A stretch of DNA of 64,000 nucleotides from Raillietiella orientalis (Eukaryota): the NCBI GenBank assembly GCA_036172245.1, contig JAYWIR010000024.1, positions 2,170,001 through 2,234,000 on the forward strand, in the 5' to 3' direction. Of the stretch, positions 1-43,600 are shown piece after piece. Below the pieces are notes generated by a model, which was given only the letters and a program-made list of their open reading frames with translations, was not told the DNA's origin and did not search any database. Both the position numbers and the translations under genes were made by a program. The stretch's first letter is position 1; each line of letters begins with the position of its first letter.

Positions 1-1
1 A

Positions 2-1036
2 GCACTTCCTTCACCGGGAGCGCCTCTCCCCATCACCGAGTGCGATGCGCACCGCGGCCGTGGCCCGACCCTGGCGGCAATCACGAGGCGTCATCTCGTT
101 CTGGAGAGCTACAGACGCAGCATCTCGACACCTTTTCCTTTTCGCGGTTCCCCCGGAACGCCTGATGCGCTCCCTCGACATCCAAGCGCAGTCGGTTCAA
201 CTTACCGACTAGCGTACTCTCTCCCATTGCTTCCCGAAAGAATGCGACAGGCGCTTGTATCCATGCAACGCCGGAGCTCAAGCTGGCAGCCCTCGCGTAG
301 AGCTCCAAACACCCCGCCCGAAAGGACGACAGTTTCCAGCTGCAGATCGCAACACCCCACAACAACATCAAACGCCACCTTCGCCGACCAGCCACTCTTG
401 TTGCACTCGGAGACCACGCCGGATAACCCCGCGAAAGGGTGGAAGATCCTTTCCCGCTCGAGCGAGCATCCAGCAGCCTGCGCGTCTCTGGGCGACGCTC
501 ATCCTTCCCGCCTTTTCCATGCACCTCCCTGCCCATCCGCCCTCGGAGCCGCCTCTCTGACTCAGCCACCCGCACTCGCACCGTCGCAAAGGACAGCAGC
601 AGAAAGCCCGCTCCGCGGCTGCGTACCATCTCGGAGCTCGAAGGATACGCAACCGCCAGGCCGCACTGCCTACGCACCCACGAGCAGTGAGATCCGGCGG
701 GAACTCGGTCGGTTGCTGCGGCGAGAAGAAGGAAGAGGCTGGAATGCAACTCGGAACCCATCCGAGGAGGCTGCCAACTTCCGCCTCAGGGACGGACGGA
801 ATGGGAGTTCCTCACGGTTGCCTGGGGAGGTATCCTCGGTGCCTCGAACGGGCGCGAGGAGAGCAAAGTCTGCGCCCCGGAGGGACACCCGGCAGACTGG
901 CTCGCTGAACGAACGGAACGCAAAACACAAAAGCGAAAGTCAGCATCACCACGCCGCTCCGAATTCGCCTCCAGCGCCGGCCTCTATGCAAAAGTCAGAC
1001 ACACATCTTCCGAGACACATGGATCATCGCGTCTAA
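2..1036 (+). CDS. Partial (5'-truncated) Ser/Pro/Arg-rich low-complexity ORF, probably the terminal exon of a gene starting left of the window
   Basis: The frame of the 227..1036 ORF is stop-free back to position 2 (344 sense codons). It ends in TAA at 1034-1036, followed by a drop in GC and AATAAA at 1232-1237. No recognisable domain. Confidence 0.45.
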   Translation, partial: ALPSPGAPLPITECDAHRGRGPTLAAITRRHLVLESYRRSISTPFPFRGSPGTPDALPRHPSAVGSTYRLAYSLPLLPERMRQALVSMQRRSSSWQPSRRAPNTPPERTTVSSCRSQHPTTTSNATFADQPLLLHSETTPDNPAKGWKILSRSSEHPAACASLGDAHPSRLFHAPPCPSALGAASLTQPPALAPSQRTAAESPLRGCVPSRSSKDTQPPGRTAYAPTSSEIRRELGRLLRREEGRGWNATRNPSEEAANFRLRDGRNGSSSRLPGEVSSVPRTGARRAKSAPRRDTRQTGSLNERNAKHKSESQHHHAAPNSPPAPASMQKSDTHLPRHMDHRV

Positions 1037-4000
1037 GAATTTTTTTGAAGTAAAGCACACACAGTCATCTCTCGGTACCACCGGCATCTGAAGCAAGCGC
1101 CTGTTCAAATTTCATTCTCAAAAACACCACAAGCCGTGCGTCCAATGAGAGCATCGAACTGCAGCCAGAGGATAACTTTCGCATCGACAGCATTTTACTA
1201 CCCACAATGACTGCTCACCCCTATTTCTATTAATAAAGTTATTAGAATCAGAAACTACTGCCGACCCCTCACTTTATCTCCTTTCTCTTTTGTCTGCTGT
1301 TGGAAAACCAATCGCGAGCGGCCACTTTAACTCCAAAATGCTATTTCCATTCGGCAGTTCCCTTCAACACACATGATCGGATAACACTCGGCAAGGAACC
1401 TTGGATTGACTGCCCGGTCCACTGCTTCCATGAAATCACATTTCGATGTGATTTCCCCAGAATGACCATATGACCATGCGGACCAGTCAGCCTACCTTGT
1501 GAAGGAATCTTGCACGACCTAAAGCTGTTTATCCTCCTTCATCGGTACACCGATGGGTTCCACCGGTGCTTCCAGATATGGAAATTGGTCCCATTCTGCA
1601 AGTCACGGAGTCCAGTACTGATATGCTCCCTTTCAAACTGGCATCCTTTTCCCATGCCCGCGTCGAAGGCCGTGTGGTTACAGGGGTCTCCGAGCGTGGC
1701 ACCATACGTCGCGGGTTCGAATACCCCGAACTGAATCGACGCAGTGCATCATGGGTTCCGAGTTCATCCCGCAAGATGACGCTGGTTGGCCTACATTCAT
1801 CCGGGTGCGGCACTGGTAGCAGTTAAAACCGGATGCCCCCGATGAGGGCCGGGACAAATGGGAGTCGACCTCCGGGTCCTTCCAGGAATCACGGAATGGA
1901 GAGTTCCCCCTCCAGTTGTGAAGGAGTAGACCCCCCATTCCGGGGGGATCCTCCAAGTTGTACTGATGGAGTAGGTGTGTCGCCACCCCCTCTCCAGGGA
2001 GTGCAGAGAAGTGAGCCGATCCCTTCGGGGAACCAGCGCCCTTCTGAAATTCGGAAGCGTCCCTTCGAGGTTCTCTTCAGAGGAGTGAAAACAGGAGCGG
2101 ATCCCTTGCGGGGGATCCCTCCGGAGACCAAATTCCAGGAGCGGATCCTTTCCGGGTTCCCTTCGGAGAAGAAAGAGTAGAGCGGACCCCCGGTGGTCTC
2201 CTGGAGAGAATATGGAAGGCGACTCCCTTCTGGATTCCCCTTCGGAGACAACCAGGGTGGAGGTGATCTCCATTTCCGGGGATCCTTTCCCACGCGTGAG
2301 AGGAACGGACTCCGAGTCCTTCCTGGATTCACAGGGCGGACCCCTCCCGGGGTGCCCCCTATCTTGAAGAATTATCCACCCTCGGGTGGCGTGGAACTGT
2401 GTCGAAGAACTGCGAAGACGGAAAAGAAAGGATTTCCAGCATCTTCTTCTCTTCTACGACTCTTTCCAGGTAGCCGCTTCTTGTGTTTGGAAACGCAATG
2501 AGCATCCTCATATTTCTGCTCCAGAATAGAAGAGGGAATCTGGCCAACTAGGCTGCCGCCACTCTTACACAGAACACGTGATTCCTTGGTCAGCGAAACA
2601 CAACGAGACCGGCGTTATGGGTTGCTGGGTGCTTCCGCGCAACTGGGAAAACGGTTCGTGCCGTTGTCGAATCCAGCAACTTCTTGCTGTTCCTCTGGGA
2701 AGCGTCGCCCGCAAGTGCACTCCCCGGCTTGCGAAAACCACCCGATGCGTTCCAGAATTTCAAGCAAACTAGTGTCTACACAGTCACGCAGAAGAAGCTG
2801 GAAGTTATCAAGAAAACTGCGTTGATCAACTGGAGAATTATTTGCCAGAAGCTGAGACTCCGTCCTCTTAGCCGATCTAGTGCTCACTACACGATGGCGA
2901 ACCCGTTCTGGCGACTCGTAGATGCAGTCAAGCGGTGAGCGGAAGGCAGTTCCAAATTTCCTGCAACAGAGCAAGATTTTGGACCCGAATTCTCCAATGG
3001 AGGAGGTGGGCGCATCAATCATGAGTCGACACGTTTTCGCACAGAGACCTCGCCTGAACACCAACCGATAAAGCAAAGACGGAAAGCGAGAAGAAAACAC
3101 GCAGAATTCTGCTGGACAAAAGTCGAAGTACTGTCGAGTAAGTCGAGCATCCCATGGAAAGATGCTATGATATATCATCCGCAATGCATGTGAAGGTGCA
3201 AGGCAAAGAACTGTCTCCATTCGCAACAAGAGGCTACGCATCACAATTCCAAGACGTAGACGTAGTTCTCGGAATTTAACTGAGCCGGTATGGCAACCGA
3301 ATGACATCATCCCAATGGAAACTTGGAAAAGACACTCACTGAACCTTCCTTACCTCCGACATACCCTTCTTGCCCCTTACCGGTCACGACAAACCCAGCT
3401 TGAGATGCAGAAGCGTTAATCTTTTGTCTCCGGACTGTTCCGTGACCAAGGTCAAGTTGGCAATCATGACGCTTTGACGTTTTCAAATGAAGGTAGTAAT
3501 CACGTGCAGATATTCAACAGCCCACCCCGGAGAAGGTGCTCACCAAATTGGCATCTGGACTCACCCTAACTCAGAAGCATTTGACTCAATCCGACACACC
3601 TCGACCCAGAGGCTGCCCACAATTCACAGCTTCCACTGTCTTCGTGAGGTACGGCTCAGAGCTCGGACATCCAACACTTGCTTGATTCCCAGCTCAAGGG
3701 TTTTCAAGTCTTCCCACCACCCCAGGCTGTTCGCGTCAACACTTTTCGGACTGGCACGCGTATCGCTGCAGCCCGCATGTGATCGATCGAAACAAACTGC
3801 GCGAGGGAATTCCGAGGCATCAGGCGAAGGTGGTTGAGTTTACTCAGCTCCGATTTCATGCTGTCTCTAAACAGATGGCGGTGGCGAAGGGATGCTATTT
3901 TCCTCAAGCGTCATAGCAAGCATCCACGTTAACATCTGCAAGGTAGAACCTGGGATGTTAACGTGGTTCTACCTCGTTCCGCGTTTCCATTTTCTACTCG

Positions 4001-4116
4001 ATTCATTGCGAGCATCTCACGAAAAAGAAAGGCCACTGCTGCTTCTCGTACTAGTGATGGGCAGGAAGCTCGACCGTGACATAATCAAAGGTCAACAAAA
4101 TCAAAACAGCGAATTA

Positions 4117-4437
4117 TTAACATAAGGATGTACAGAATGATTGTGTCACGATACCGGGATAAGCTAATCGGGAGATCACGGTACATATGCGGAGTAGATC
4201 CGCCGAACTTGAGGGGGGAGGGGGACCGTAAAAAATTTGGGAAGACCTCTTCCCGTGAAGATTTACTGGAAAATTCGAATGGCAAACAACGGGTTTGAAA
4301 CTTTCCAGCAATTCCCACAGCACAATCACGAAATTACCTTGTAGCTGCTCTTGGGCATCTGCTCTTAGTGCAAGTCCACTGCAAGCAACGAAGATGGCGA
4401 ACAGAGTTGCAGGAGCGAGCACTTCCTTCGCGCGCAT
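4117..4437 (-). CDS. Putative small secreted peptide precursor, 82 aa, 2 exons (4437-4338, 4265-4117)
   Basis: MRAKEVLAPATLFAIFVACSGLALRADA is signal-peptide-like with an A-x-A end. A 72-nt intron at 4337-4266 has donor AG|GTAATT and acceptor TTTTCCAG. The spliced product continues QEQLQVNLH-GKR-SSQIFYGPPPPSSSADLLRICTVISRLAYPGIVTQSFCTSLC*. Confidence 0.55.
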   Translation of the reverse strand: MRAKEVLAPATLFAIFVACSGLALRADAQEQLQGNFVIVLWELLESFKPVVCHSNFPVNLHGKRSSQIFYGPPPPSSSADLLRICTVISRLAYPGIVTQSFCTSLC

Positions 4438-5508
4438 CTCGACTTCGGGAAGATTTCGCCGCACGAGTGAAGGGGCAAAAATGCAATTCAAGGTTACGTC
4501 ATGGACCGACGGAGAGGCATCCACCCAAAGCGAGCCCAGCCTCGGAATAAAAAAGAGAAACGGAGATCGACGTGCTCTCCCCTTCCCTCCCACGTTCAGG
4601 ACGGGAACGAGCGAAGAGCGCAAACACTGGAATTAAATCTTCCAGGGGAACACAGCGACTCTTCCGCCGCCGTTCGCGCGACGCGAGATTGAAAGTCGCC
4701 GGAAGCAGACGTGCGCACAGACCACACGAAGCGTGAAAATTTTCCAAAGCAAGACGAAGATCCCTGGCATCCGGGATCTGCAACGTGAGGCGCCCTCCGC
4801 CAGTATCGGAGGCGCGCGAGAGAACGCACGCATCGGATGCCCCCTGTCGAGGCGCACCGGAGAGGAGGCCGTTGCTCCAAGTCAGGACTTGCTGCCGACG
4901 GCCCTTCTGCAACTGGACGTGCATCTCAGTGACAGATGCGCGTTCCCCTGCCAACGAAGAACGCCGGCGGAGGACGGTTCCGTTCCGAATCGGAACCAAA
5001 TGCAACAAATCTGATCCAGGCCACGTGGAGAAAGCTGCACCGTCGGATGATCCGCTCGCGGTTCGTGCTCGACGGGTGCCTCCTCATGCTGGAGTTTGGA
5101 TGAAGCATTGCGAAATCAATCCGCTGCGGCCGATCTCTGGCCCAATCGCCTGCACCAGTAACGAAGAGTTCCAATACAGCTGCTTCACATCGCAGGAAAA
5201 CCTCTCGACGACTGCGATGCGGCGAAAACACGGCGAGCTCCATCGCACGGGTTTACGGGGCGGAGAAAAACTTTTGCTGCTTTCAAGGTTCTGGAAATTT
5301 ATTTCTCCAGCGTAAACTCTGGGCGATATCGCGGCAGGACCCCGAACTTCGCTGCATCACTCCCTGAGACCTTTCGAGAGCTTATGTTTCACGCGCCACT
5401 TTCACTGCATTCAAGGTTCGATGGGTTCTCACAGAGCCTTCGTCTTTCCGTGTCCGATGCCAACAGGGCAGCGCCTAGCGAGGAAGCGGTCCTTTTACTA
5501 CGAAGGCA

Positions 5509-8500
5509 TCAGGCTATATTGGTTGGATTCCAAGACAACTTGGGCCTGGTCTGAAGCCCGTTAAGAAAGTTGATGTCGTTTTCTTCTAGCTGAAAATCCA
5601 GCTGGATGTTTTCACGGATGTGCTCCGGGTTGGTCGACTTGGGTAGAACGCCTACGAGAGAAAAAAAAAAAAAAAAAAAAAATGGGTGTCTTACTCTGTT
5701 TGCGACCGTTTACAAAGTTTTACAAATTGATGGGGGGGGGGGTCCGATCCGGGTTCGAGGAACAAGGGATTCTTCCCAGCTCGAGGGGGAAGATGCTTAA
5801 GGAAAACGCGTCCGTCGGCAATGAGTAACATCGGAATTCCGGCCGCCATGACGTTCTCTTCGATCCGCGATGATCCCGCCCGCGCGCGAATCCGAATGCC
5901 TGCGGAATGGCTCGAGCGTTTCCAGGAGGGTCATGCCCAACCGATCTCCATCGCCTCACACCCCTGATCTCCCATGCCGCTCACGTGCTTTGGCCGTCCG
6001 TTTTGGGACGTTCCGTGGGGTTTTCAGACTGCACGCAAACTTTGGTTAGGCAGGCCGATGACGAACTGAGGATAAACTGGGTCAACGCCCAGAAGCTCAT
6101 GCCCGTCACGTAAGTGCCACACCGGCGACGCGCGTTGTTCCGGCAGCGTGCAAGAGGAAGCGCAGCCGGAGAAAGGAAGTTTAATTCCCAGAGGTTTCCC
6201 TCTCACGGGGGTCTGCGAACACGGACCACGAGAAGATCAGATGTCGAAAGTCCCGAAATCACGTACACACCGCAGTCCGACGGGACAGCACGCTGGCGTC
6301 ACTCGATGGTTCCGTGGCTACGGGCAACCGACGAGCCGAACCCGATGCGGAACCTTGCGTTGCTGGGGAGGTTCACAATACCGTCAACACGATAGTACCA
6401 ATGTTTTGTTGCACGGCCCATTTCAGAATGACTTGGGCCGGGGTCCTATTGTATTTGACGGCGAACTCCTTGATGAACGGATCGTTTAAGATCTCCAGGT
6501 TGTGTTCGCTGGTGCCTCCCAACGTCGAATAGGACTGGAAGTGAATATTGTGCTTCGAGCAAAAATCAACGATCCCCGGATGAGTGAAATAGGGATTGAA
6601 TTCGTTCTGAAATCGAAATATCACCGCATGTTAGTTCATGAGAAGAAAGGGGGGAGGGGAGAAATAAAGTAAGAGCAATTCGGATTAACTGAGATGCATG
6701 TGAACTGAGCACTTCCGAGGCAGAACAACAAATGAGAGACTGCACTTACTTGCATGAGAGATTGGCATGATGGCTCTCCTGGAAACCACCGATCGAATCG
6801 ATGGGCCGCGCAGTGGGAATGCAGGACGCACAGGAGGAACCATGTTTGACGCGCATGACAAAAATACGGGAGAGCCCAGCAGCTTCGACGGAAACCGTTC
6901 CCACCCAGCGAAGCAAACTAGTGTCTACACAGTGTCTAAACCGAGCGAAGTGTAGCAGGAGCGGTGTCCAGAGAAGAAGGGGGAAGGGCCATTTTGAAAG
7001 TGCATCGGTAGCAATAGAGCGCTCGAAAAGGGAAGCGACCGGACTTCCATACGAGATAATGGGTTGGCACTGCGGGATGGGTGCGTGTGCGTGTGTCGAA
7101 GAGAGAGAGAGAGAGGGGGGCTTTGTGGTACAAGAGTTCAAAAGTACCTGCAAGACTTGCGGTGTAACGCTGCAGTAAGAAAACAAATCCTTCAGATGCT
7201 TCTCGGTGTAGTTGGAAACCCCGATGCATTTCAGCGTGCCATCTTTGTAGAAGCTTTCCAGCTGCAACCAAGTTTCCTTCCTGTAAAGTCTGTTCAGTGG
7301 ATCCCCAGGTAAAATGCCTTGGATACCTTCAAAGAGAGAAAATTGCTTTTATGCAAAGAAAAGAGCGCGGAACCACACGCCTCCCCTTCCGAGTTGGCCA
7401 CTTGCAAATCAAATGATGCTACCCAGCTTGTGTTATTGAGGAATTTCAAAAGTCTGTCCCCTCCCAACTGATTTGCTGGAGTCCCGGGAATTCGCCTCCC
7501 CAGGGTGGGTGGGACTTGACTGCCACGCACAAAGGATCTCCCCAACAGCAAAAACCAACACCCCAACACTGCTGCCAACCTTCCAGCAGATCAGTTTTCA
7601 TGACGAGACAACTTTCAGGCCGAAACCAAAGGCTTGCCGTCCACCTCGCTCGTCTCAAGCGAAGAGTCCGCAAAACTTTCCGGCCGGATGCGCGTGGAGT
7701 CGCACTCGAGACACGACGAATCATCCTTGGTTTGTCTTGAGTATCTCGCTGCAACGGAAAGAAATTGCTTCGCTGAAGGATCCGAGGTTGGTAGGTATAT
7801 GCAAGAAACTCCTGGACGAAGACCGATGCAGAAATGTGATACCGATCTCTTATCCGCAGAAGCCTCTGGTCACAAAGAGCATCCCTCAAACCCGCCGCAT
7901 ATGGCAAACGCAAAGTTTCTCCCACCTTCACGGAGGGTGAGTTATTCCGTGCTCAGCAGTGCACGGAAAAACAAGACGACTTGCAAACAGAGCGGTATAT
8001 TTCTACCACAGATCTCATGAATCAGCTCCAATCGGAGATTTGTTAAATTCCGGCATTTCAACGTGCATCTCCTTGGCGATGGAGCTTGCTTCCTTGGAAA
8101 AGACTATGTCTCTTAGGTTGGGGAAGGCGTTCCGTGGAATTTCTCCGACACAATGGAGGGAGAGGTAGGCGTAGATGATGAGAAAATCCGCGAGGGAAAA
8201 AGTATCTCCTACGATGTACCTGTTCCCTCCTCTCGGACTCGGTTTGGAGTCAACGAAGGTCAAGTATTGATTCAACTTCCGAAAGTACGGGTTGTGGTCA
8301 CCACTTGCCTCCTTGTCGCCACCGTCTATGGGATTCAGTTCCAAACCCTTTATCAGGGTTCCGTCTTGCAGCGTGCTGAAAAATTTCCGCACCAAATCGT
8401 CTACGAGCAAGGTCTCGTGGCTGTTACGTCCGTACATGTTGTGCTCGCTCGCTATGAAACGGCAAATGACGGGCGTCTGCCCAAGTACTTTGCTATCGTC

Positions 8501-11500
8501 CACTAGGAGCAGTGGCATCTTGGCGAAGGGAATCAGACTCTTCACCGCGGGCCAGTCTTCTTTAGTCACGGACACGATCTCGTGATGAACACCGATGACA
8601 CGGAGGAGGAGCAGAGGAATGGACGGGATGGAGTCCAACGGGCGGCACATTTTGAAATCGATGTACTTGAACGACGTGTGCCTCATTTTCCTCTGGATGA
8701 TTTCGTAGTGAAGCTTTTCGGCTCTCTTTTCCTTAGCCAACACCGCCTTTCTCTTTTCCTGCAGCCCTTCGACGGCTTTCTGCACCGTTTTGTACAAGAA
8801 CGAACTCAACGCGATCAAGAAACTGCAGGCCGTTATCCACAGTGCAGCGCCCATGTTTCACACAACTTTTGAGCTTCCTGGTCTCTCAGAAATCAGTGGT
8901 ATCGCTGCTAGAAACTTGCCAGTTGCATCAAAAGAAACACTACGCCACAGAAAGACCAACTGTGGTAACCATGACAACCCTCCTGCGACCTCGCTTCGCG
9001 ATGCAAACTCCAGGAAACCCGAAAATTTTGCAGGGAGATGTAAACACTTACTCCATTAATCAACGAATCTGTTTTTTTTTTTTTTTTTTTTTCTTTTCTT
9101 TATGGTGCCTCTGCAGCGTACTTTGAAGATGAAGCACGCGGCGAAAACGTAGGTGCAAAAACGACTACTGCGCGCAGGCACCGGAAGCGAAGGTCGACGA
9201 AACGTGTTGAGGACGGCAACTCGGCTGGAGCCTGAATTCCATGACTGAGAGGGGATTCCGAAAGAAAGAAGCGATAACGAGCGGTGAGCGCAGTTCAGCG
9301 ACACGCCACCCACACAAAACCTGCCATATTTGTCAAATTTGCATTACGTTCGAGACTCTCCACCCACCCACCCACCCCACCGAAGCGAACACTTCGACAT
9401 GGAGACGATGGCGCAGCGCGCACACCACGATGAGGCATGCCGGGATCTGATGACGTCCAAGCGGGTCGGAACCGAGGCTGAGATCTTCTCGGCGTGCGGA
9501 AACCCGGATGAGCAAGACGGGGGGGGGCGGCTTTTGAAGGACAAACCAAACTTGAAGAACGAGAGGGAGAAACATGTGGATGGGTGGAGTCGAGATGCCA
9601 AGCCAAAGCTTCGTTTCCTTTCAAGGAAAACGGATAGTGCTGTTGGCTGCACAACCAACAACACTTTCGGACTTTCGACTAGCGGATCGGTTCCCTCCTT
9701 CCCCCCCCCCCCCCCCCACCCGGTCCCACACACCTCACCCCCTGCCACCAACGCAACTCGATCCCAATCGCGCGCCCGATGGGTGAATCGTACTCCTGAC
9801 CTTTCCACTTCCCGTTTGCTTTTGTCAAATTTGCATTACGGCGCACCTTTGGGATAAGCAACGCCAGGTCAAATGACCCTAATTGCGCATTGCCTGAGAT
9901 AAGCCCTCCCTTTTCAAATGCCTCGATTATTACTTTTTCCTTTTTCGTACAAAGCAAATTACCTGGCCAATGTATTAGATACAGATCGATGTACTCCAGC
10001 TGCAAGAGTGATAGGGAATTCTTCACTGCATTGAAACACTTTTCCTTTCCTTGAGAAGCAGGACCTGCAAAGAACAGTCAAGAGTAAGTTGACAGTTTGA
10101 AAGACAAACACCGAAGACAACTTCTATGCCATGCCAGCATCTAGGAGGTACACTGTACGCTTGCAAGAGATGCACGGATGGACAAAAAACACGGGAAAAA
10201 AAAAACTCCCCAATGGAAACAAAGAGGAAAATTTTTCAATCTTTTGCCCCTTCAGTGTTTCGGGAAAAAAAAAAAAACATTTCCTCGCTTACATAACGCA
10301 TTTTTGCTGAAACGGAAGCCACCAAAAGATACGACGGCAGAGAAGAATCGCTCGGTACGATTTCAATTCCACGAAGAATTTTCTGATTACTGTGCTGAAA
10401 GAAAAAAACCCAACAGGTTGGATGGAACGCAATCGAAAATCTCGGGAGTTTCGACCCCAGCCACCATCCAGCCACGCTCACCGAAATATCCCCAGCTATT
10501 GAAAATCGAGACCGTGAGGTAGGTGGTGACCCGCAGCAGGAAGCTTTACGTGGAGATTCAAACAGAAACTGCAGCAGCCCGGAATGGGATCTCACTGGGA
10601 CTTTGCCGTATTAAGAAAAACACACACGCGACTGTTAACAAGAAGCCATACGCTGAAAACAAAATACACGTCGCAAGCCCAAACCAATGCGAGCATTCGG
10701 AAAGGTTACAAACCAACTTTGGATGTGATGAAGACATCTTCTCTCTTCAGCCCATGTTTCGACAGAAACGCCTTCAGCGCCGCCCCGATATCTTCTTCGT
10801 TCCCATACACTTCAGCAGTGTCTACGTGAGAGACTCGAATAGGGTGTCCCCTCTTGCGAAAGCCCAACCACACTCCACTTACCGATAGAACGGTACCCAT
10901 TTTCGAGAGCAGAGTCGACGACTTTGAAAACGAGATTCGTTCCTTTGATGCGATAGGTTCCAACTGAAAGCACATACAAAATGTTACCAGTCGACATGTT
11001 GCACACTTACGGCTACTTGGAATAAAACAACAGCAGCATATTGGATACAGCAATAGCTATTAAACGAAACGTGGGTTAGGATCGAATAAAAAAAAATAAA
11101 ATGAAATGAAATTATCCATACTCATAAAAAGAAGCAATCTATTGAAACGAAATCTGTGAGCCGAAGTAAACCGATGGATTCTTGAGCATTCGTTTCGAGC
11201 TCACTTTTCCGAATAACACTACTGAACGAATCCTTCTTTCCTTCCGTAAGAAATAACCGTGGACTTTCCTGTCGTCACTTCCGATATGCAAAACCTCATC
11301 GAAAGAATAGCCAAAGAAAAAAAAAATTTAGCTCACCTCTGTGGTTTTTATGACGCTTCGTTCCCATTTCATATTCAGCACTGCAATCAGAGAGCGGAAT
11401 GACAAAATCACGCAAGCATTTTTTCACTTTGGCTACTGAACTCCTCGAGATACTGGAAAACCATCAGGAAAAAACTATTTGCCCCTTCGTTGCAAACTAA

Positions 11501-14254
11501 AAGTCTCAGGTAAAAAAAAAAAAAAAAAACGGATTTTCCTTTGACGCCGGAACATCGGGGAAGCGTCCAGAAAGTCTGCAGCCTCAGAGACCTCGTTTCG
11601 GACAAAAACGCGGGATGCCCCTTGGACAGAACGGAAGCGCACCACTGATGGCTGGGAACCTCCGAGGCGAGAAACACCATTTGGAAGCTCTCTGGAAGTG
11701 TTTGAAACACACTGGATGGGTTCGTCTGCGGAAAGCCCAGGCGATTCCGTGAGAAGGACGAAAGAGGAACTCGAGGTGCGTGGATCTTTGCGAAACTGCT
11801 TATGAATTTTGAGGTACGGCCTCGCAGACTTTCGAATTATTCCCGAGTGAATCTCGCATGTTCAGTTTTTTTTTTTTTTTTTAAAAAAAAAAAATGACTA
11901 CTTTTCTTGAAACTGTTTCTCGGAATCGTAATGAGGAATTCGGTTAGCTTCAAAGAGAGTAAGAACGAATGCACTTGTTGCTGCTGATGCAGAGACCCTG
12001 GTTCTGATGAGGTTCTCAAAGGAGACACTTGAGCACTCAAAAGTTGAAATTGAAGAATGTGGTTACAGTGTGTGTCCAGGAAAACGAGTGATTGACCCAG
12101 CATTAAACATGGGGCCGTTCCTTTACGATTTTCACTTAGCATTCCTCCACGTGGCTCATCTCTTTCCTGTTCCCGAAAAACTTTCCTGGTTCGCTTCGTA
12201 TTCCCGCTATTCGGATTTCGATTTCACATCCGCAGGGATACTTTTGGTTGAATTAAGCGTGGCCCGGTAAGTCCGTTAACCCGAAAGACAAAATTCCGAA
12301 ACAAAACTTCTCAAAGATGCGATCCTGCACCTCCTCCAGCTACTACCCAACTCTTCTATCCATATCGATCCACAAGAACAAATCGTAAAAAAAAAAAAAA
12401 AAAACCATGCATGTTTTGGAAGAAATCAAAATTTCTCGTCCCCCTCTGCTAGGATTTTTAGAGTTGGCTGGTCACTTTCCAGCAGATTCAGAACATGTAC
12501 TCCTGTCGATACCCCATGTACCTTACACATAAGTAAACACAAAACACGCTTGCAGGAACACCTTCAGATGGTGCGACCCGGTCAAACAAGGCGTGGATGC
12601 AGATTCGTTTTGAGAATGGTTATGCACCTTACTTGGACCGACTCTGTTCCACTATGTTCTTTAGTGTTCACCTGAATCTTGAATAACAACCACCACCCCG
12701 AGATTTCAACCACTATGTTTGCCAATGCATTACTTTGTGCACATTTTGTGTACACACTTGCACGTTAATTTTGAGCTACATCTTATTGAATGTAACTTTG
12801 TAGCTGACTGCATTACTGTCGTGATTGAATGTGTTCTACTAACTTTGTAGTAGATGTGTCTGTGTGAAACTCTGCCTCTTCAAGTTTCGTAACAGTGGGA
12901 AGCTTTGGAATATTTTTATTCCTCATTAGTTTTCAAATTACCTTCACTTTCATTAGAGGAAAGTGAAAGACGAGGGAAAATTTTGAATTCCAATTTATGT
13001 ATGAAAATTGCAAAACTTTTCCTAATTCTCTATATTTTATGTTTTGATATTTAAATGCATAAAGATTTTCTTGAGATGATGAATGATTCAAAGCATGTAA
13101 AAAAAAAAACACATGTTCAAAATAAGCTTTTCAGAAAGACATTCAGTGGTTACTTGTACATCACTAGTACAACTCGTAAAAAGCACACATTTGCGCAGAC
13201 TTTAGATATACAACTTGAAAAAAAGTTAGACAAAAAACACCAGAATTGGTACTGGTGAAAAAATGCATTAAGCTGCTGTCTCATAGATGATCCAATGGTT
13301 TTAATTATATTTTTCATTTTAAATTTTGAAATTGTTAAAATAGTAGTGTTACATAAAAAACACCACTATCCACATGAATAACTTGAATGTTGAAGGGCAA
13401 CAGAAAAATAAAACAAAAAAAAAAAACCTTCTTCTATGCATTTGATACTTTTGATTTCCTATCAGAATCTTAAAATTATAACGGATTTGCTTCACACTGA
13501 GTAATTAGCTTCAATATAATCTCAGTTCCTTAATAACTTATAAGGATGATCACCTTTACAGTTTGCAGTGCCTGGTGAAAATTACACCACATGTTTTGGT
13601 GTGATTTACATACTTTGGGTGTTTCATATTGACATTATTATGTACTACATAAAAAAATTAGGCATGTCTACTTCAGAACATCAGTTTTAGACAAGAGAGC
13701 ACTACAACACACAAAGGATGCAACCTTTGGTTTTATATTTTTGCTGTGGTCGGAAAGTTCTTAAAAAATTTTAACCAATACTACATAAAAAATAGTATAA
13801 AGTACACCGAAAGGTACGGTGTACTCTATACTATTTTTGATTTACAGTATAAGTTTCAACTTCTCCTGGTATCTTTTTTCCTTTTAATCGAATCAGAAGC
13901 ATTTCCAAAAAAAAAAAAACATTTGGATTTCAAGCTTCAGATTTTACAAACTCATCAAAAAATAGACACTACTTTTTAATTTCGCGTGACATAATTATTC
14001 AATCACATGGATAGCATAATCAGGGCTGTACTTGGTGTAAATAAAGGACTAAACAATAAAAAAAACACTGTCCACATTCAGACGAATGTTACAATTACAA
14101 TGCACCTTTATTTACTGGTACAATTTGGTTATGATTGTTTCCTATCTCTATTTATTACATTGCACAATATAACCTTTAAATACTTAGATTACACGGATTA
14201 CTCACAGCCAACGAGAGGCATTGACACTCCATTATTTAACGTGACAGATCCCAT
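5509..14254 (-). CDS. Aldo-keto reductase family protein, 289 aa, 7 coding exons: 14254-14206, 10963-10883, 10821-10714, 10064-9963, 7326-7148, 6606-6399, 5651-5509
   Basis: Exons join in phase through GT-AG introns (870 nt). Motifs are MGSVTLNNGVSMPLVGFGTY, GYRSIDTAEVYGNE, FITSK, YIDLYLIHWP, IGVSNY, QVILKW and VLPKS. The AKR catalytic tetrad D-Y-K-H is intact. Confidence 0.95.
8015..8854 (-). CDS. Divergent glutathione S-transferase-fold protein (sigma-class-like) with N-terminal hydrophobic anchor, 279 aa, single coding exon, nested in AKR intron 4
   Basis: EDWPAVKSLIPFAKMPLLLVDDSKVLGQTPVICRFIASEHNMYG fits the GST N-domain pattern. YIVGDTFSLADF fits the GST C-domain N-capping/hydrophobic-staple motif. 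Residues ~3-21 are hydrophobic. Lies wholly within intron 7327-9962. Confidence 0.8.
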   Translation of the reverse strand: MGAALWITACSFLIALSSFLYKTVQKAVEGLQEKRKAVLAKEKRAEKLHYEIIQRKMRHTSFKYIDFKMCRPLDSIPSIPLLLLRVIGVHHEIVSVTKEDWPAVKSLIPFAKMPLLLVDDSKVLGQTPVICRFIASEHNMYGRNSHETLLVDDLVRKFFSTLQDGTLIKGLELNPIDGGDKEASGDHNPYFRKLNQYLTFVDSKPSPRGGNRYIVGDTFSLADFLIIYAYLSLHCVGEIPRNAFPNLRDIVFSKEASSIAKEMHVEMPEFNKSPIGADS

Positions 14255-17200: not shown

Positions 17201-17517
17201 AATTTCATTATTTGCATTCACCGGAGTTCATGATTGTGCCTGTTACAAAATATGGCAGTTTGAGTAGAAAATGGTTTTGCGATCGTGCTCGTTGCCACAT
17301 TTGAGAAATCGGATATCAGAGGTTATACCGCTTTTGTGCTTTTTGGGACCTTGATCCATCGTAAATTCTAATGGTAACCGTTAGTGCATATATGTCTAGA
17401 GTTTTTTTTCTCCACAGCATTAATGTTCTTCCTTATTTCGCCATATCATGAAGGCATACAGCGGAAAAGTGGTGAAAAAAGCACCGAAATTTATTGTCAT
17501 GACAATGGAGCTATGCA

Positions 17518-18843
17518 ATGAAAAGAAATCCTTTGTTCATGGAGCCTAACTTTCCCTATAAGATCACCAAATTATGTTATGATCATTATTTTGATAATTT
17601 GAAAAAAACTGGTAAGCCACAAGTAGGCAAAGAATGGACAGTAATGGCAGCCATAATTAAAAGTGATGACTTTAAAGCAGAAGAAGAAATGTTTGAAGTA
17701 GTAGCATTAGGTACAGGAACTAGTTGCATTGGGCAAACCCAGATGAACCATGGAGATATACTAAATGATAGTCATGCTGAGGTTGTAACAAGAAGGGCCT
17801 TTATTAGATATTTGTCTTATGAAATTCGCAAGCTATACATAGAGGGAAGTTCAGCAACATTAATATTTTCTGCTTCATTTAACATGTGCACTGTAAAACC
17901 AGGAATTCATTTTCATTTTTTTTGTACACATACACCATGTGGCGATGCATCAATAATTGACCAGGATCTAAACACCTGTGATAGTGATAATGAAGTAGAT
18001 TATGTACAAAACTACTTCCAAGATGATGCAACCATCTTTACTTCAATTCCTTCTTCAAATGAACATAAACTCTCACATGCTTTGGATATTTACAGGACTG
18101 GAGCAAAGTGCTTGCCTGGGAGTACACAAGATTCCAAACAACCAGGTTCTGCATACCATGCCCGTGGCTCTTTGAGAACAAAGCCAGGAAGAGGTGATCC
18201 TACTTTATCTATGTCTTGTAGTGACAAATTAGCAAAATGGATTATGTTGGGCTTTCAGGGTAGTATTCTAGCGCATTTTTTGGAAAGACCTGTTTGTGTA
18301 TCAACTGTGACAATTAGCAAATGCCCATATGACATTACTACAATGAGGCGTGCACTTTGGGAGCGTTTTAAACTAAAGCAATCATTGGAAATTAAGTATC
18401 TAAATATGGATTGGCCACTGTTATTATATTCAGATTTACCATTTGCACACAGCAAAAGTGAAACAGAAAAAATATGCAAGAAACCTGTGCCTTCACCTGC
18501 AAGTATTATTTGGAGTAAAGTGCCCATGAGTCCATTTGAAGTTTCTGTGAATGGATACAAACAAGGACTTACACATAAAATGTTGGAAACAACAAAGATG
18601 AGAGTTAGCATTTGCAAAAAATTGTTATATCATTCTTTCATATCACTTGTAGAAGAGATAGATAGCGATTGTTTACCAAATACCATATACCTTTTAAAAA
18701 GTCATTTATCAGAACTGTGCTATATGGATGTGAAACAGTTGAGCCCTTGGTATCATAGCATGTGGATGCACATCAAAAAGCAAGTTTTTAAACACTGGAG
18801 TGAGAAACCAGAAAGTTTTTCAAGGTTTACTTTGAATGATTAG
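17518..18843 (+). CDS. ADAT1: tRNA-specific adenosine deaminase 1 (A37 of tRNA-Ala), 441 aa, single coding exon
   Basis: ADAR-type deaminase domain with no dsRNA-binding domains. Motifs are KTGKP..EWTV, ALGTG, LNDSHAEV, TPCGDAS, YRTGAK and RTKPGRGDPTLSMSCSDK. A likely 5'UTR acceptor TTCTCCACAG ends at 17417. Confidence 0.93.
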   Translation: MKRNPLFMEPNFPYKITKLCYDHYFDNLKKTGKPQVGKEWTVMAAIIKSDDFKAEEEMFEVVALGTGTSCIGQTQMNHGDILNDSHAEVVTRRAFIRYLSYEIRKLYIEGSSATLIFSASFNMCTVKPGIHFHFFCTHTPCGDASIIDQDLNTCDSDNEVDYVQNYFQDDATIFTSIPSSNEHKLSHALDIYRTGAKCLPGSTQDSKQPGSAYHARGSLRTKPGRGDPTLSMSCSDKLAKWIMLGFQGSILAHFLERPVCVSTVTISKCPYDITTMRRALWERFKLKQSLEIKYLNMDWPLLLYSDLPFAHSKSETEKICKKPVPSPASIIWSKVPMSPFEVSVNGYKQGLTHKMLETTKMRVSICKKLLYHSFISLVEEIDSDCLPNTIYLLKSHLSELCYMDVKQLSPWYHSMWMHIKKQVFKHWSEKPESFSRFTLND

Positions 18844-35859: not shown

Positions 35860-37680
35860 ACACGTGCCTTACCGACCATAGGATGCCTTTTTGAATGGGA
35901 AATGGGGAGCCGGCACCCGGTATCCCCCTCTGCTCCCTCCCAGAGCATCGGGGAGCCTCCGAGCTCTGGGAAACGGTGTCGCATGTGTGAGTCGCTTGGG
36001 GGCTCCCAGTCTCCAGTTCTTCCGAGTAGCCTCCACGGTCCATTCCATTCCATCATTCCGTCCGGTCTGCAGTCCACAAGGAGTTGCTTCTTCGAGGCCG
36101 CCGACCCAGCCGATGCTTCCAGCGCTGTCGTGGGATAAAGGATAACGCACCGTCTTCCTCCTCTCGTAAGCAGCCTCTGCACTTTTGGATTGGAAACAGG
36201 TGGCTTTCAAACGGGCAGCGGCTAAGACAGGAGGCGAGGAAAGACGATGACTCCCCACCACCGTTTCTCGGAGTGGACGAACCGCGAACACCCCGCTGCT
36301 TTCTTCGATCCGGAGAGGAGTGGCTCCTGTGGGAACGGTCGGGAACGTCATACGTGCCGCCGGACGGACTTCAGGGCTCCGCTGCCTCAGCTCCGCGTGC
36401 CAGCTGTCTGTTGGCAGAGTGACAACGGTAGCTTGGGGAAGACCTCGCAGCCACCTCGTCTTCCACATGACGATCGCTTGCCACCGAGGTCCTGACAGCA
36501 CTGTCTGCACCGACTGAATGGGATGCAGACGGAGCCCTAGGGAATGGGGGGGAGAGGTCGGATGCTTTCGCGATGGACGTTCTTTCGAAGACCTCTGAAT
36601 GCTGTTCTTCCCTGCACCTCTGGTACTTTCTTATTGTGCCTGTGGAAACCTTCTGGTAGGCAAAGGCCATTCCACGTTTTATCCTCTCACGTGCATGCCA
36701 GGCCATCCATCGTGGGGCTCAGCTGCCACCTGATCCATGTGGCTGGAGTCGCTCGCACACGAGTGGAATGCATACTGCCTGTCACCTGGATCCCATTCAA
36801 TCCACGCTGGTGCCTCATCACGGGTCGACTCCCAAAGCAGTCTTCATGCGCCGTCCTCTTAGCTCTGCTGACTCGACCTTCTGAATCCGCAATTTTGGAT
36901 TGGAAACGGAGGGATTCAAATGGGAAGAGAAGGCGGCAGACGAGGGAGGACCAGGCGACCGTCCTAGGATTTGAATGCCTTGCATCTTCCTGCATCCTCC
37001 TCATCAGTCCTGGGATCCTCCCCGCCGCAGTTCCCCAGAGCAGTATTGCAACGGGCTGGCTGTTCGCCCATTCGTTGAAGCACAGATCAAGAGAGGCTGC
37101 TTGAAAGCAACGGAAGATGGCCATCTGGGACTGCCTGGTCCATCCCCTTCTTCGATCAAGCTCCCTGTTCAACGAATGAGGCCGACGCCGTCGAGGCCTC
37201 CTGCCGTCTCACAAAGCCCCGCGGAGATCTTGAGAAGAAGCTGGACTCCGAAGACCAGCTCTCTGCTCTTCGAGAGGAGCTTCGGCCTCGCTGCGGGTGC
37301 CCGTCGCAGGTTCCTCGGAGATCCTGGGACCAGGGGGAAGGGCTGGTGCTGATGACCTTCAGCGGCGACACACGAAAGGAAGAAGGTGGTGCGTTCCGAC
37401 GTCCGGTTATCCTACGACAGCCGCTGGAAGCATCGGCTGGGTCGGCGGCCTCGAAGAAGCAACTTGTGGACTGCAGACCGGACGGAATGGTGGAATGGAA
37501 TGGACCGTGGAGGCTACTCGGAAGAACTGGAGACTGGGAGCCCCCAAGCGGCTCACATATCGTTTCTCAGAGCTCGGAGGCTCCTTGATGCTCTGGGAGG
37601 GAGCAGAGGGGAATAGGTACCGGGTGCCGGCTCCCCACTTCCCATTCAAAAAGGCATCCTATGGTCGGCATGGCACGCGT
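35860..37680. repeat. Long inverted repeat: arms ~35860-36138 and ~37407-37680, spacer ~1.27 kb
   Basis: Manual reverse-complement alignment gives about 11 substitutions and 4 short indels over ~280 nt. The same peptides (e.g. WNGPWRLLGRTGDWEPPS) appear on opposite strands in the ORF track. Confidence 0.95.
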
Positions 37681-40600
37681 CGCAGGTTCCTCGGATATCT
37701 TGGGACCCGGGGAAGAGGGCTGAGGAGCCGAAAGAGCTGAATATCCCAGCAGGTTCCGGTGCAGAGCACACCCGGGGTAGGGAGGCGTGTTCCAGCATCG
37801 AGCTCTCCCGCGACACCCAGAGGAGGCATCGGATCCCCATCTGATGCTCGCCGAGAAGCGGCAACTCATCGTGCACTGCAGCAGCCTTCACCGGTTGAGG
37901 AGATGGTCGTCGCCCGGCAAACGACGGAGTGTTCTCCTACACATACCTACGTAAACCATACCTAAGCAAACACAATAAGGGAAAATGCTTTCTCTATGGA
38001 GTCCAGGCTTAGAGAAAGTTCTGACGCGCGTCCACCGAGGAGGAAGGGTAAGGAGAAAGTCGGAGGGACGGAGAGGAGAGGTAAATGAATAAAAGATCCG
38101 CATGTATTTTTCCGAGGAGGAAAGGACCACCGGGTCCCCGAACCGTGGGAGATTCCACTCCAGGTTCCCTGCCGCAGGCGTCCTTCCTCGCCAGGTAGGT
38201 GCCGAGGGGTGTGAGGTCGCTGCCCTTCTTTCAGATGCTGGCAGACCGTGGCGGACTCCGCGAACCCGGTGGTGCGGGATGGCCGTAGGGGCAGTCCCTC
38301 CAGGAAGGAAGAATCTTCTTACCTGACCCCTTCTGCTCATGTGGGGGAGAGCTCGGAGAAATCAGCGCCCCGCTGCAATCGGGTAGAAGAGCGGGAGCGC
38401 TCCCATGCCCGGCGCGTCCCCGGAGCGATGCCCTCCGCCGCTGCTTTCCCGCCCTCGTCTCGCGGTGTCGGCGCTTGCTGCTCGGCATGGCGAAGGAAGA
38501 ACACTCGCTGCGTGCTGCTGCCGCCGCCGCCGCCGTCTGGATCTGTCTGGGAGGCTACCAGGTCTCCGAGGAAGAGTCCCGAGAGCTTCTCCTGTTGCGG
38601 ATCAGCCCCTTTGCCCTGACTCCAGAAGTCGCCGCTCTGGACAGCTGACCGGAAGACCATTCCCCCAAGGAGCTCGGTCGCTACTTGCAGGTCGTCTTCG
38701 AGAGAGGTCGCAGGGGTAAAAGGAGAGAATCTCCCTCTCCATCCCATCGGAATCGCTCTTTCTCACGTCTCCCCTTTGAAGTGACTTCTTACGGTGAAAA
38801 GTGAACGAAAGATGGTGTTCCCTCCTCCTCTGCGTTCACGTGACCCGATTTTCAGTCAAACCTGTTCCGGAAGAGGGTTGCGCGCCGTTTCCGCCGTTGA
38901 CAGTGAGGCTCCCCTGCTGCCCCGGCCGCACGTGCGCCATCTGGCTCTGGTCGGTCGAGCAAGAAAGGCGGGAGAGGGGGAGGCTGCAGGGATTTGAACC
39001 CGAAGCCTTTTCCCTCAAGCACCGGGCTGTGCGAGCAGGGGATCGGGACTATCAGTCGGAGGAGCGTCGAAGGTTGACCTGCACCCTGGTGAACGCCTCC
39101 TCTCCCCCCCCCCCCCATCTCCTCCAAAACGAACCCAAGAGCGGCCCCGCCGCAGTCACGAGGGACTGCTGAGGGCGTCCCCACTGTCGTGCCGCGGTGC
39201 TGAGAGCTAGATGGCCAGAGCGGGAGCGAAAAACCGCTGCGTGACAGCAGCACCCCTTCCCTGCCTCAGAGGTCTCGGTACGGGATCTCAGTCCGGGCGC
39301 CACATTGCTCAAGAACCCGGTTCGGGATAGGAGGTGAGGGTGGTAAGCGGGGAGGAGGAAAACACGTCTGGCGTGTGCGTTGCTTTGTCCTCAGGAAGCT
39401 GCACGGCTCCTCGAAGGGAAAAAGGGGATTGGGACACCAGGGGTGTTCGTTCGAAGGCATCCTCCTTTCTCGCCCCGTCTCCCTTCCGAGGTCGAAGGGG
39501 GTCTTTCGAAAGAGCCCCCTCAGGGCTCTTCCCGAGCGGATGAACGCAAAACCAGAGGCGCTTCGCGCTTTGAGGAGGTGAAGGGGGCAGGAGAAGGCCT
39601 CGGGGTCTCGGAAGCGGAGGGAGGGGGGAGATGCTCCTGCGTTGGCAGAGAGGCGAAGGCGCCGGAGGCTCCTCGAAGCCCACGCGCTCCAGGCAGGTGG
39701 TCTGAGGGGTTCCCTGTGGATGACGGGAAGAGGCAGGAGGAGGAACCAGGGGTAAAACTAGGGGTCCACGGCTGGACACCTCAAGAGTACGAACTTGATG
39801 GTCGAGAGGACCCTGCGGTGCGATCGCCTCCTCCTCCACGGACCGGCTGAGCACTGAACTCGACCGTCGTGACTTCGAGAGATTCTCCTTCCTTTTTGAC
39901 GCAGGAGGTACTTTGGAGTAGCCTCCGGGACAGGAGTTCCCCCTTGCTCAGCGAATCCGTGGGAAGACCTACTCTTCCTCAGGGGAGGATGAGAAGAGGA
40001 GGTTGGAGGAAGGGACCCGCCAGGAAGCTCATGCCCTGCGTGCGTTCCGGGAGGGCTAATTTCTCCGGGGACTTGGGAAGATCGACTGGACCGCGTGCGG
40101 GGACCGTTCCCGCGGAGCGCTCCTCCTGACAAGACCTCCAGGATACCTCTCTGGAGCGTGGGCTGCCTCTGAGGCGATTCCGCACCGACGGCGGACCCAG
40201 GCGATCGTCCTTCTCCCGCAGGAGCACAGGGAAGGGAAAGGTTCTCTGCCATCCCTGCCGCGAACTGGCAGGGATGGCCTTTTCCGGGGGCGCACGCATG
40301 GATGCGTCTCCAGGGTCTGTGACACCAGCGGGCAGGTCGCGGCGGGCTGCGCAGCAGAGCCCGACTTCCGCACGGTCGCCATGCGTCCTGCTGCCAGTGG
40401 CAGCCGGCAGCGCAGTCGGGAGCCTCAAACAGGAGGCCGACTTCGTCCCGCAGCTCGCCCTATCGGGGGGACGCCCACGGAGGACCAGGCTCCACACTTG
40501 TCCAGAGTTCGGGAAAAGGCGGGGAAGTGCTCCGCGTGACGGGAGTCTCATCCCAGGGGAGGTTCGGCTACCGGATGCTTTGCTTCGCCTCCCAACCCGC

Positions 40601-43600
40601 GCTGCCAATCAGCCGAATGAAGAGGAGGAAGGAGGAGGAGGAGAGGAAAGGAGGAAGGAGAGAACACACGCGCCCACCCAGGAACCTACCTGCTAACCAG
40701 CTCGCCTCGAATTTCCCTTCGCCGTGCCTCTCCAACCGGATTCGGGGATTTTTTTTTTTTCTTTCGACCATGACCGCCAACCCGCTTGGCGTCCCACAGG
40801 CTCCTTCCCTCCTGCCATCCTCCGTTCCCGGGGGAAAGAGGAGGTCTGAGGAATGGGAGGCGGTGCGGCAGCACCCAACCGAGCCGCTCAGGACTCGCGG
40901 GCCTCTGTGGCGCACTGCCCTTCGGAAAGGAGCACCGAATGGGCGTGTCCGCTCTTGGAAATCTGGGAATCGTTTTCTTGGTGATGGTGCTCCACCAGAG
41001 GAAACCTTCCTGCCCCCACTGACACGTTCGCAGCGGCCGCTGATGAGCCGTCCGATTGGGATGATGCGAGGCACAAACGAGTGGAAACGGTCTGCTCCCG
41101 AGCCTAAGGGTCGCCCCTTTCCTTTGAGGTGCCTCAGAAGAAAAAATAGGGCGGAACGGCGGAGAGGTGAAGGGGAGCTATACTCTGGCTGACGTCCCTC
41201 TGCGTACAGGAGGCGCATCTGCTGCTGCTATTGGTTATACATTGTGAAAGACGCTTCGCTTTCGAGCATCCTGCTGATCTTGGAGATTGCGGTCGGCAGT
41301 CAGGGGCGAACGGTCGCCATTTTGCTTTTCGACCACCCACCCCCTTCCCCCCCCCCGAAGTTCTCCAAAACATTCGCCACCGCCGACCGGTTCCCGGTTT
41401 GGACCGGAGGAGATCGGCGACGCTGAGTGATGAGAGGAGAACCCAAACCGTGCCCATGCTGTCCCTGCCCTCACTGGGCCAGCTTTGCACTGACCCGCCA
41501 GTATCACTACTTCCGGCCAGCTGAGATCCTGGCGCGTTGGTAGAAACGGACTTCTCGAGCTTCCGGACGAAAAGGAAGTCTGGGTGACATGAGAGCGGCT
41601 CTGGTCCGAGAAAACAACACTGGACGCACCAGCCAGCCTCTTGCAACAACGGAATGATTCGCGACGGCTCTTGCCGCTGGTTGCCATGCAGACGAATGTT
41701 TTCAGTCCTTGAGCTGCCCTAATTTTTATGGTCTCCAGGCCTCTCGGCAGATTCTGTTTCTGTGCACTGCCCTGCTGAAAGTCTCTTCGCTTCCCTCCTG
41801 CTCCCCCCTTCCGCAGAGCAGAATACCGTTTCCACGGTGCAGCATGCGAGCAATCAATCTCTACGCGAAAAAAAAAAAAAAAAAAAAAAAGAGAGAGGGA
41901 GAGAGGAAAACATCTTCCAGATTGGAGCTCTCAAGAATAGCAGACGGGAAAGCGGTTACTCCGGAAAATCGATCGTCCCTGTTCTTCGGGGAGTCATTTC
42001 TCCATCTCCCACCGCGCGTGCGCTGACGAGCCGCTTCTCGCCGGGCGTTGCGCGTCGGAACCTTGCGAGGAGAAAACACACCTCAAGGGAACACCCTTTA
42101 CGCTCGCAAAGAAATTTCAGGAATTTCACGGAAAGCACGGCTTCGGTTCTGCTGCTGCCGTTGCATGAACGATCGACTGCAAAATTGAGCGCGCGCGCGT
42201 GTCCGCCGCGGACCGAGGTGCGTCGCCATGGCGCCTCCTCCTTCTCCTCCCCCCCCCCCAGCTTTTTTGTTGCCGCGAATCTTCTGAACCTTTTGCCCGC
42301 GCGAGACGTAGCGGGAAAGCCCACAGGGTTTCTTTCTCCGTGCCCGTCGGAGTTTCGCTTGCCGTACTCGACTGCCCCACGAGGAGAGCACCTTCGCGGA
42401 TAGGCACGCGTTCCGTATCCGCCCCGGCACGGTGCGGTCAACGAGCCCATTTCGCGCAGACGAACCGGCTTTGCCTCGGCGTTGAGTTTTGGATGCGGGG
42501 GATGCTGTTGATGTAAATGGCGCCGCGCTAGCGTCGGTCGGGCCCCCTGCCCCTTCTGCAAGAGCTTTTTCGATCCCGTGAAATCCCGCGTTGATTCGCA
42601 CGCACGCTTCCGCGTGGGGAGGAAGGAGTACGCCAGCGTCGGTGGATTCGTTCGGTTCCATCTTGCAGCTGGAGGAGATTCCTGCCCTCGGGAGCAGACG
42701 ACGAAATGCCGTTTGGCTGTCTTGTAGGAGCAAATCACCGGTGCTGACGGTCGCAGGAACCGGACGGCTTCGGTGGATGGGTTGCTTCGTATCTGCTCAG
42801 AGATTATCTCGTCAGTCGTTCCAGTGCGTTGGCTCCATTCGTTCCGTTTTTTAAAGTTGTTTTGATTTTATGTCAAGGCGCGTTGTGCGTTGGCTCTGAA
42901 AGGCAAAATTTTCCTCCTGCGATCCGTTCAAGCTGGACGGAATTCCGTACATGCGGAATAAGAAACGCCTTTCCCTCCGTCAGCACCGAAACCGATTTTA
43001 CAGGTTGGACACTTTCTAGCGTACAGGAAAACGAAATGCTTTCCCGAGTTCGCAAGATCCGGTACGATCTTCTTCCTGTAGGCAGCCATTCCACGGAATG
43101 CTTTGAACAGGCCTGTTTCTGGAAGAAGGAAGGAAGGAAGGAAGGGGGTGGGGGGGGGGGAAGCGTCCCCTTGAGTTTTCAGTATGTAATCCATAGCGAG
43201 GTAATACATACAGAATCTCAGTTTCTCAGCCGAGGGCATTGCTCGAATTAGTCGGCCTAATTTGATTGAACCGGGAACTATTAATCTGCAGCTTGTACAA
43301 GAGCTTGGATTTGAAGGTCTCGACAGCCTTGCATGGTCTGCGTGTTATGTAAATCTCGTTGATAAAAAGTGCAAGGAAAACAGCTTGTGAGCCATTTTTC
43401 TTTCTCAGGTCGGCACCGGAGCGACGAGATACTAATACGTCGTGCTTTAGCAGACAGATCGATGAAAATCAAAACAACAACCCAGCTTGTTTTCATTAAA
43501 AATATTTGCTTAATACTTCGGAGCACTCTATTTGCCTGCTGACCCCTTTCAATTCCGACACCTCAAGTGACCCGTTGAACAGCACCAAGAAATGGACCAC

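Follow-up and report, generated by a model that had tools for sequence, protein, structure and literature searches.

A peptide-precursor-like reading frame on a Raillietiella orientalis contig is probably a chance open frame in GC-rich DNA

Introduction

The precursors of corazonin, ACP and GnRH carry the peptide directly after the signal, with an N-terminal Gln, a GKR-type processing signal and conserved aromatic residues. A comparable arrangement is known for the AKH/RPCH family. In a published account, insect AKHs are described as peptides of 8-10 residues with a pyroglutamate N-terminus and a C-terminal amide, in which position 4 is aromatic, position 8 is Trp and position 9 is Gly (PMC9573411). 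The general principles of precursor processing given in that account agree with the ones assumed for the locus described here (PMC9573411).

The present work concerns a 64-kb window, that is, the whole stretch of 64,000 nucleotides of Raillietiella orientalis DNA that was analyzed, and in it one open reading frame (ORF) on the minus strand. The initial annotation had presented this ORF as a candidate neuropeptide-like precursor, with a signal peptide, a short amidated peptide starting with pyroglutamate (pGlu) and a Cys-containing associated peptide. If true, this would amount to a novel peptide hormone of an arthropod, one that has the precursor layout of AKH/RPCH and lacks the aromatic signature of that family, and it would bear on the co-evolution of peptides and receptors.

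Results

Organization of the reading frame

The ORF runs on the minus strand from an ATG at position 4437 to a TAA at 4119-4117 and encodes 106 aa when read without splicing; it is part of a stop-to-stop open frame of 171 codons (4117..4632, minus strand). The Kozak context of the ATG has a G at -3 and a C at +4. Removal of a 72-nt intron had been proposed to give a product of 82 aa with a junction at 4338/4265, and re-reading of the sequence bears out the arithmetic, the coordinates and the letters. The putative exon 1 (4338..4437, minus strand) comprises the ATG, an uncharged stretch, RADA, and QEQLQ with the first base of the next codon, and ends at 4338. The putative intron (4266..4337, minus strand; GTAATT...TTCCAG) has its GT at 4337-4336 and its AG at 4267-4266 and is, as had been claimed, in frame and stop-free. 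The putative exon 2 (4117..4265, minus strand) starts at 4265, supplies the two remaining bases of the split codon, and continues with NLH, GKR and a 42-aa tail that holds a PPPP/SSS run and three Cys before ending in TAA TAA.

All the elements that had been named (a hydrophobic leader ending in ADA, Gln29, GKR and a tail with three Cys) are present as letters. Residues 1-28 consist of MRAKE, an uncharged stretch of 19 residues (6-24, with a mean Kyte-Doolittle hydropathy of 2.19) and RADA, and Gln29 follows. The only dibasic site of the 82-aa spliced product is the KR at residues 39-40, which follows a Gly. After residue 28 there are three Cys in the spliced product and four in the unspliced one. 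The -3/-1 rule is satisfied by six sites between residues 19 and 28, and because cleavage between ADA and Q is only one of these six, a pGlu N-terminus of the candidate peptide is not assured. The 19-residue uncharged run is long for the h-region of a signal peptide and could equally be a membrane anchor.

Comparison with known peptide families

The candidate resembles AKH/RPCH precursors in its order of parts: a putative signal, a short peptide with Gln first, Gly-Lys-Arg and a Cys-containing associated peptide. With the 72 nt spliced out and a cut after residue 28, nine residues lie between Ala28 and Gly-Lys-Arg, which falls within the length range given in the AKH account, and the amidation signal GKR occupies residues 38-40 of the spliced product. 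The initial annotation had remarked that aromatic residues of the AKH or corazonin type are missing, and the letters agree, as positions 4, 8 and 9 of the peptide are Leu, Leu and His. Measured against the family rules in that account, the candidate has Leu where the family has an aromatic residue (position 4), Leu where it has Trp (position 8), and His where peptides longer than eight residues have Gly (position 9).

No similarity to AKH/RPCH precursors was found by HMMER (0 proteins at E <= 0.001), by word-indexed protein search (none at E <= 10) or by Pfam search (0 families). Since positions 4, 8 and 9 all depart from the family and no precursor shows similarity, the candidate is not a member of AKH/RPCH. 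Its likeness to corazonin, ACP and GnRH precursors is of the same kind, namely a peptide after the putative signal, Gln first and GKR; in contrast to these families, the candidate peptide contains no aromatic residues, and HMMER returned no match to any of their members.

Searches for homologues, transcripts and repeats

The word-indexed search yielded six word-sharing candidates, all beyond the E value given above, and the HMMER search covered 1.84 billion representatives of any length. A feature search of a protein atlas gave no usable match (recognition 2176), a result that says nothing on whether the gene is real. Within the 64-kb window, tblastn for a paralogue found the self match alone, with the next best at E 0.82, and there were no Rfam matches. 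A metagenome locus that had been seeded by the pattern CHSNFPVN has stops in frame and was set aside as a chance match. No paper was retrieved by a full-text literature search for the motif VNLHGKR.

How much weight these negatives deserve can be read from a conserved gene of the same window. The ADAT1 frame has 1420 relatives at E <= 1e-10 and yet a best identity of 43%, from which it follows that the protein collections lack both the organism and its close kin. With the lineage unsampled, missing homologues carry little weight either way, and a peptide precursor that evolves fast would escape a search of such collections anyway.

A search of sequencing runs with the stretch found no RNA runs and a single DNA run, X1, whose word share was 0.13. 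Over positions 1-12000, this run provided one 151-nt contig, which matches 4208-4358 without a difference and represents the unspliced genomic sequence; being from a DNA run, the contig says nothing on splicing, and over 4208-4358 it offers no sequence variation that could be used to assess constraint. There is no repeat or transposable-element signal at the candidate locus: blastn of 3400-5400 against the window returned the self match alone, and no inverted repeats of at least 16 nt occur in 2400-6000.

Expectation from random sequence

Signal-like leaders were scored with a home-made and crude heuristic, in which K or R precedes an uncharged 12-mer of mean hydropathy at least 1.9 that is followed by a -3/-1 site. 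The leader of the candidate passes, at a pass rate of 3 among the 207 ATG ORFs of at least 50 aa in the real window. As a null model, a second-order Markov chain was used, block by block, to simulate 1000 windows of the same local composition, and these held on average 209.6 such ORFs, 2.90 of them signal-like, as compared to 207 and 3 in the real window. The window has no excess of secreted-looking ORFs over random sequence. As signal-like ORFs are just as numerous in random sequence, a reading of the candidate as a gene is unlikely on base rates.

The further features narrow this expectation stepwise. At least one ORF with a leader and any dibasic site downstream was present in 782 of the 1000 simulated windows, and with G[KR][KR] as the downstream site in 146. 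When a Gln at a possible cleavage site was added to leader and G[KR][KR], 8 simulated windows contained an example; when an in-frame intron of the form AG/GTRA..YAG was added instead, 2 did; and with all three added features, none (0/1000). These features were chosen post hoc, with the ORF already in view, and other embellishments would have served equally. The full combination is rare at face value, and its post hoc selection tempers that rarity.

The length of the candidate ORF is at the level of chance. Stop-to-stop frames of at least 70 aa that overlap positions 1-14000 number 108, and ATG ORFs overlapping 3800-4800 encode 116, 141, 80 and 77 aa, the first two of which adjoin the candidate. 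Among 30 flanking frames in 1-6532, none reached the curated Pfam cut-off, and four gave matches at E 0.048-0.17 only. In length, number and leader-likeness the candidate is like the chance ORFs of GC-rich non-coding DNA, and its neighbouring frames of equal or greater length likewise belong to no family; it differs from such ORFs in that a good GT..AG pair occurs together with GKR and with a Gln that could follow the signal cut.

The putative intron

The putative intron has good splice sites. Neither its donor, CAAG/GTAATT, nor its acceptor, TTTTCCAG, falls short of the two real splice sites read for comparison in the aldo-keto reductase (AKR) gene, namely the donor ATTG/GTACTA of the exon at 6373-6630 and the acceptor of that same exon. 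The intron is also AT-richer than its flanks (GC 0.42, against 0.50 for the exons). Candidate introns of the type AG/GTRA..polypyrimidine-YAG occur in only 5 of 108 ATG ORFs of at least 70 aa, and in 4 of those 5 they are in frame. A second in-frame acceptor is present, with which the intron would end at 4164.

Multiple-of-three, stop-free introns are under-represented among real short introns, and we estimate the chance that a real intron is both at roughly one in ten. Because 72 nt is divisible by three and the intron holds no stop codon, its GT..AG pair gives no evidence of a restored frame, and as support for a gene the intron criterion is close to neutral.

Coding, promoter and polyadenylation signals

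The GC content at codon positions 1, 2 and 3 of the candidate is flat (0.55, 0.51 and 0.45), and the second-position value (GC2) is high beside the 0.31-0.42 of the window's homology-supported exons (one out-of-frame AKR piece excluded). A codon-usage log-likelihood model was built from about 1100 codons of the window that have homology support. Per codon, true exons scored from -0.19 to +0.29 (leave-one-out) and the candidate -0.09 spliced and -0.04 unspliced, so that the score did not separate true exons from the candidate and was dropped as a coding test. By this barely discriminating score, the frame of the candidate ranks second of 14 local ORFs.

Neither AATAAA nor ATTAAA occurs on the minus strand downstream of the stop, from 4116 down to 1; an AATAAT overlaps the stop of the candidate ORF. 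A nearby canonical poly(A) signal is also missing from two control frames of the window, the GST-like ORF at 8015 (within 1500 nt) and the ADAT1 ORF (within about 1330 nt), and for that reason its absence at the candidate is weak evidence. No TATAWA was found on the minus strand in 4438-5300. A CRE-like octamer, TGACGTAA (4494..4501, minus strand), starts 64 nt upstream of the ATG and is possibly a promoter element, possibly chance.

The exons of the neighbouring AKR gene extend on the minus strand from 11056 to 5509, and the last of them (5509-5651, minus strand) ends in ..NPTNIA and a stop. The AATAAA at 5298-5303, about 205 nt after the reductase stop, is the only one on the minus strand in 1-6700. 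The candidate ATG follows this signal on the same strand at a distance of about 860 nt, where the local GC content is 0.48-0.57.

Discussion

The 106-aa frame is probably, on our data, a chance ORF in GC-rich DNA in which no gene is recognizable. Its precursor-like features (hydrophobic start, Gln, GKR and GT..AG pair) would then be coincidences strung together by a pattern-seeking reader, and the frame, situated downstream of the aldo-keto reductase gene, would make no peptide and would presumably be neither transcribed nor translated. The letters reported for the locus are accurate; only the ORF's own sequence hints at a gene, and a gene here is, all told, unproven and unlikely. The simulation leads one to expect about three signal-like chance ORFs per window, while real orphan genes for secreted peptides may amount, by a rough estimate, to perhaps a tenth of one or less per 64 kb. 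A gene becomes somewhat more likely when GKR, Gln and the GT..AG pair are considered; most of this gain is lost again, as the features were picked post hoc and the intron is uninformative.

The main alternative is a real, lineage-specific two-exon gene for a secreted preprohormone of 82 aa, which we regard as unlikely. In such a precursor the signal would be cut after Ala28, Gln29 would cyclise, a convertase would cut after KR, and a carboxypeptidase and PAM would use the Gly, to release a nine-residue pGlu-...-His-amide and a Cys-bearing associated peptide. All the motifs stand in the right order and spacing for this, and signal, short peptide, GKR and associated peptide reproduce the AKH-type layout. 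The rarity of the combination (found in 8 of 1000 simulated windows without the intron criterion and in none with it) speaks for a preprohormone and against chance, and so do the good splice sites, of a kind present in few of the ORFs surveyed. Chance also leaves the AT-rich intron, the CRE-like octamer and the second rank in codon usage as coincidences, though that score barely discriminates, and the otherwise empty stretch past the poly(A) signal of the neighbour could fit a small gene. Against a preprohormone, however, neither a transcript nor a relative nor a paralogue was found in the searches made, and the required cut before Gln is one among several the leader would allow. The uncharged stretch, long for an h-region, would suit a membrane anchor, the number of Cys in the tail is odd, GC2 is high, and a canonical poly(A) signal is absent. 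The intron is moreover of the least informative kind, and signal-like chance ORFs far outnumber the real orphan peptide genes to be expected. A narrower version of the same idea, in which a lineage-restricted two-exon gene encodes a new amidated pGlu nonapeptide that has kept the AKH/RPCH layout and lost the aromatics and sequence rules of the family, appears to us highly improbable.

Two other readings take the frame as coding, or at least transcribed, in a different way. The frame is open without splicing, and it could encode a real 106-aa small protein, secreted or membrane-anchored, in which GKR and GT..AG are incidental. The length and hydropathy of the uncharged run and the even number of Cys after residue 28 would suit such a product; but transcript and relatives were again not found in our searches, the protein-atlas search had no usable match and ORFs of this length occur at chance frequency, so that we give this reading very little credence. 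Animal genes often encode the signal peptide in an exon of its own, and 4338-4437 might be such an exon, with the donor at 4338/4337 joined to a downstream exon either at positions lower than 4117 or beyond the window; the stretch might instead be part of a non-coding transcript. The good donor and the second in-frame acceptor are in keeping with a signal exon of a larger gene, whereas the 14 larger frames in 1-4125 show no Pfam match at or above the curated cut-off, and among the representatives searched with HMMER no longer protein contained this exon. Taken together, an exon of a larger gene or a piece of a non-coding transcript seems a very slim prospect, and a chance ORF is still the explanation we prefer.

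About one 64-kb window in seven of GC-rich animal DNA is expected to hold an ORF with a leader and an amidation site by chance (146/1000 in our simulation). Candidates that look like peptide precursors need RNA or comparative evidence before being taken up. An "intron" that is in frame and stop-free should not count as support for such candidates.

Genomic surroundings

Several features of the window were noted alongside the candidate. The last exon of the AKR gene (5509-5651) is preceded by a polypyrimidine tract with a T-run of more than 20 nt. An intron of the same gene, between the exons at 9679-10077 and 6746-7348, harbours a nested ORF with GST_N and GST_C domains (279 aa, 8015-8854, minus strand), the hydrophobic start of which could be a membrane anchor. 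The ADAT1-like gene (17503-18843, plus strand) is a single open frame of 446 codons, with matches spread over vertebrates, nemerteans, hemichordates, brachiopods, Daphnia and chelicerates. A CCCH zinc-finger ORF is located at 50092-51294, and a GC-rich island at 36000-43000 (GC 0.59-0.62) is crowded with long ORFs on both strands.

A dispersed repeat occupies 1600-2450, where the depth of contigs from DNA run X1 is 24-49, against about 1-3 in unique parts. It is represented by many variant contigs, with internal deletions, and the long frames over it belong to no Pfam family. About 150 nt downstream of the stop of the candidate ORF, a perfect 13-bp hairpin (approximately 3935-3975, minus strand) is interleaved with a 9-nt inverted pair, GGTAGAACC and GGTTCTACC. 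Its minimum free energy is -22.4 kcal/mol (z-score -2.1), 7 of 200 shuffled sequences fold as well, and its 20-mer is unique in the window.
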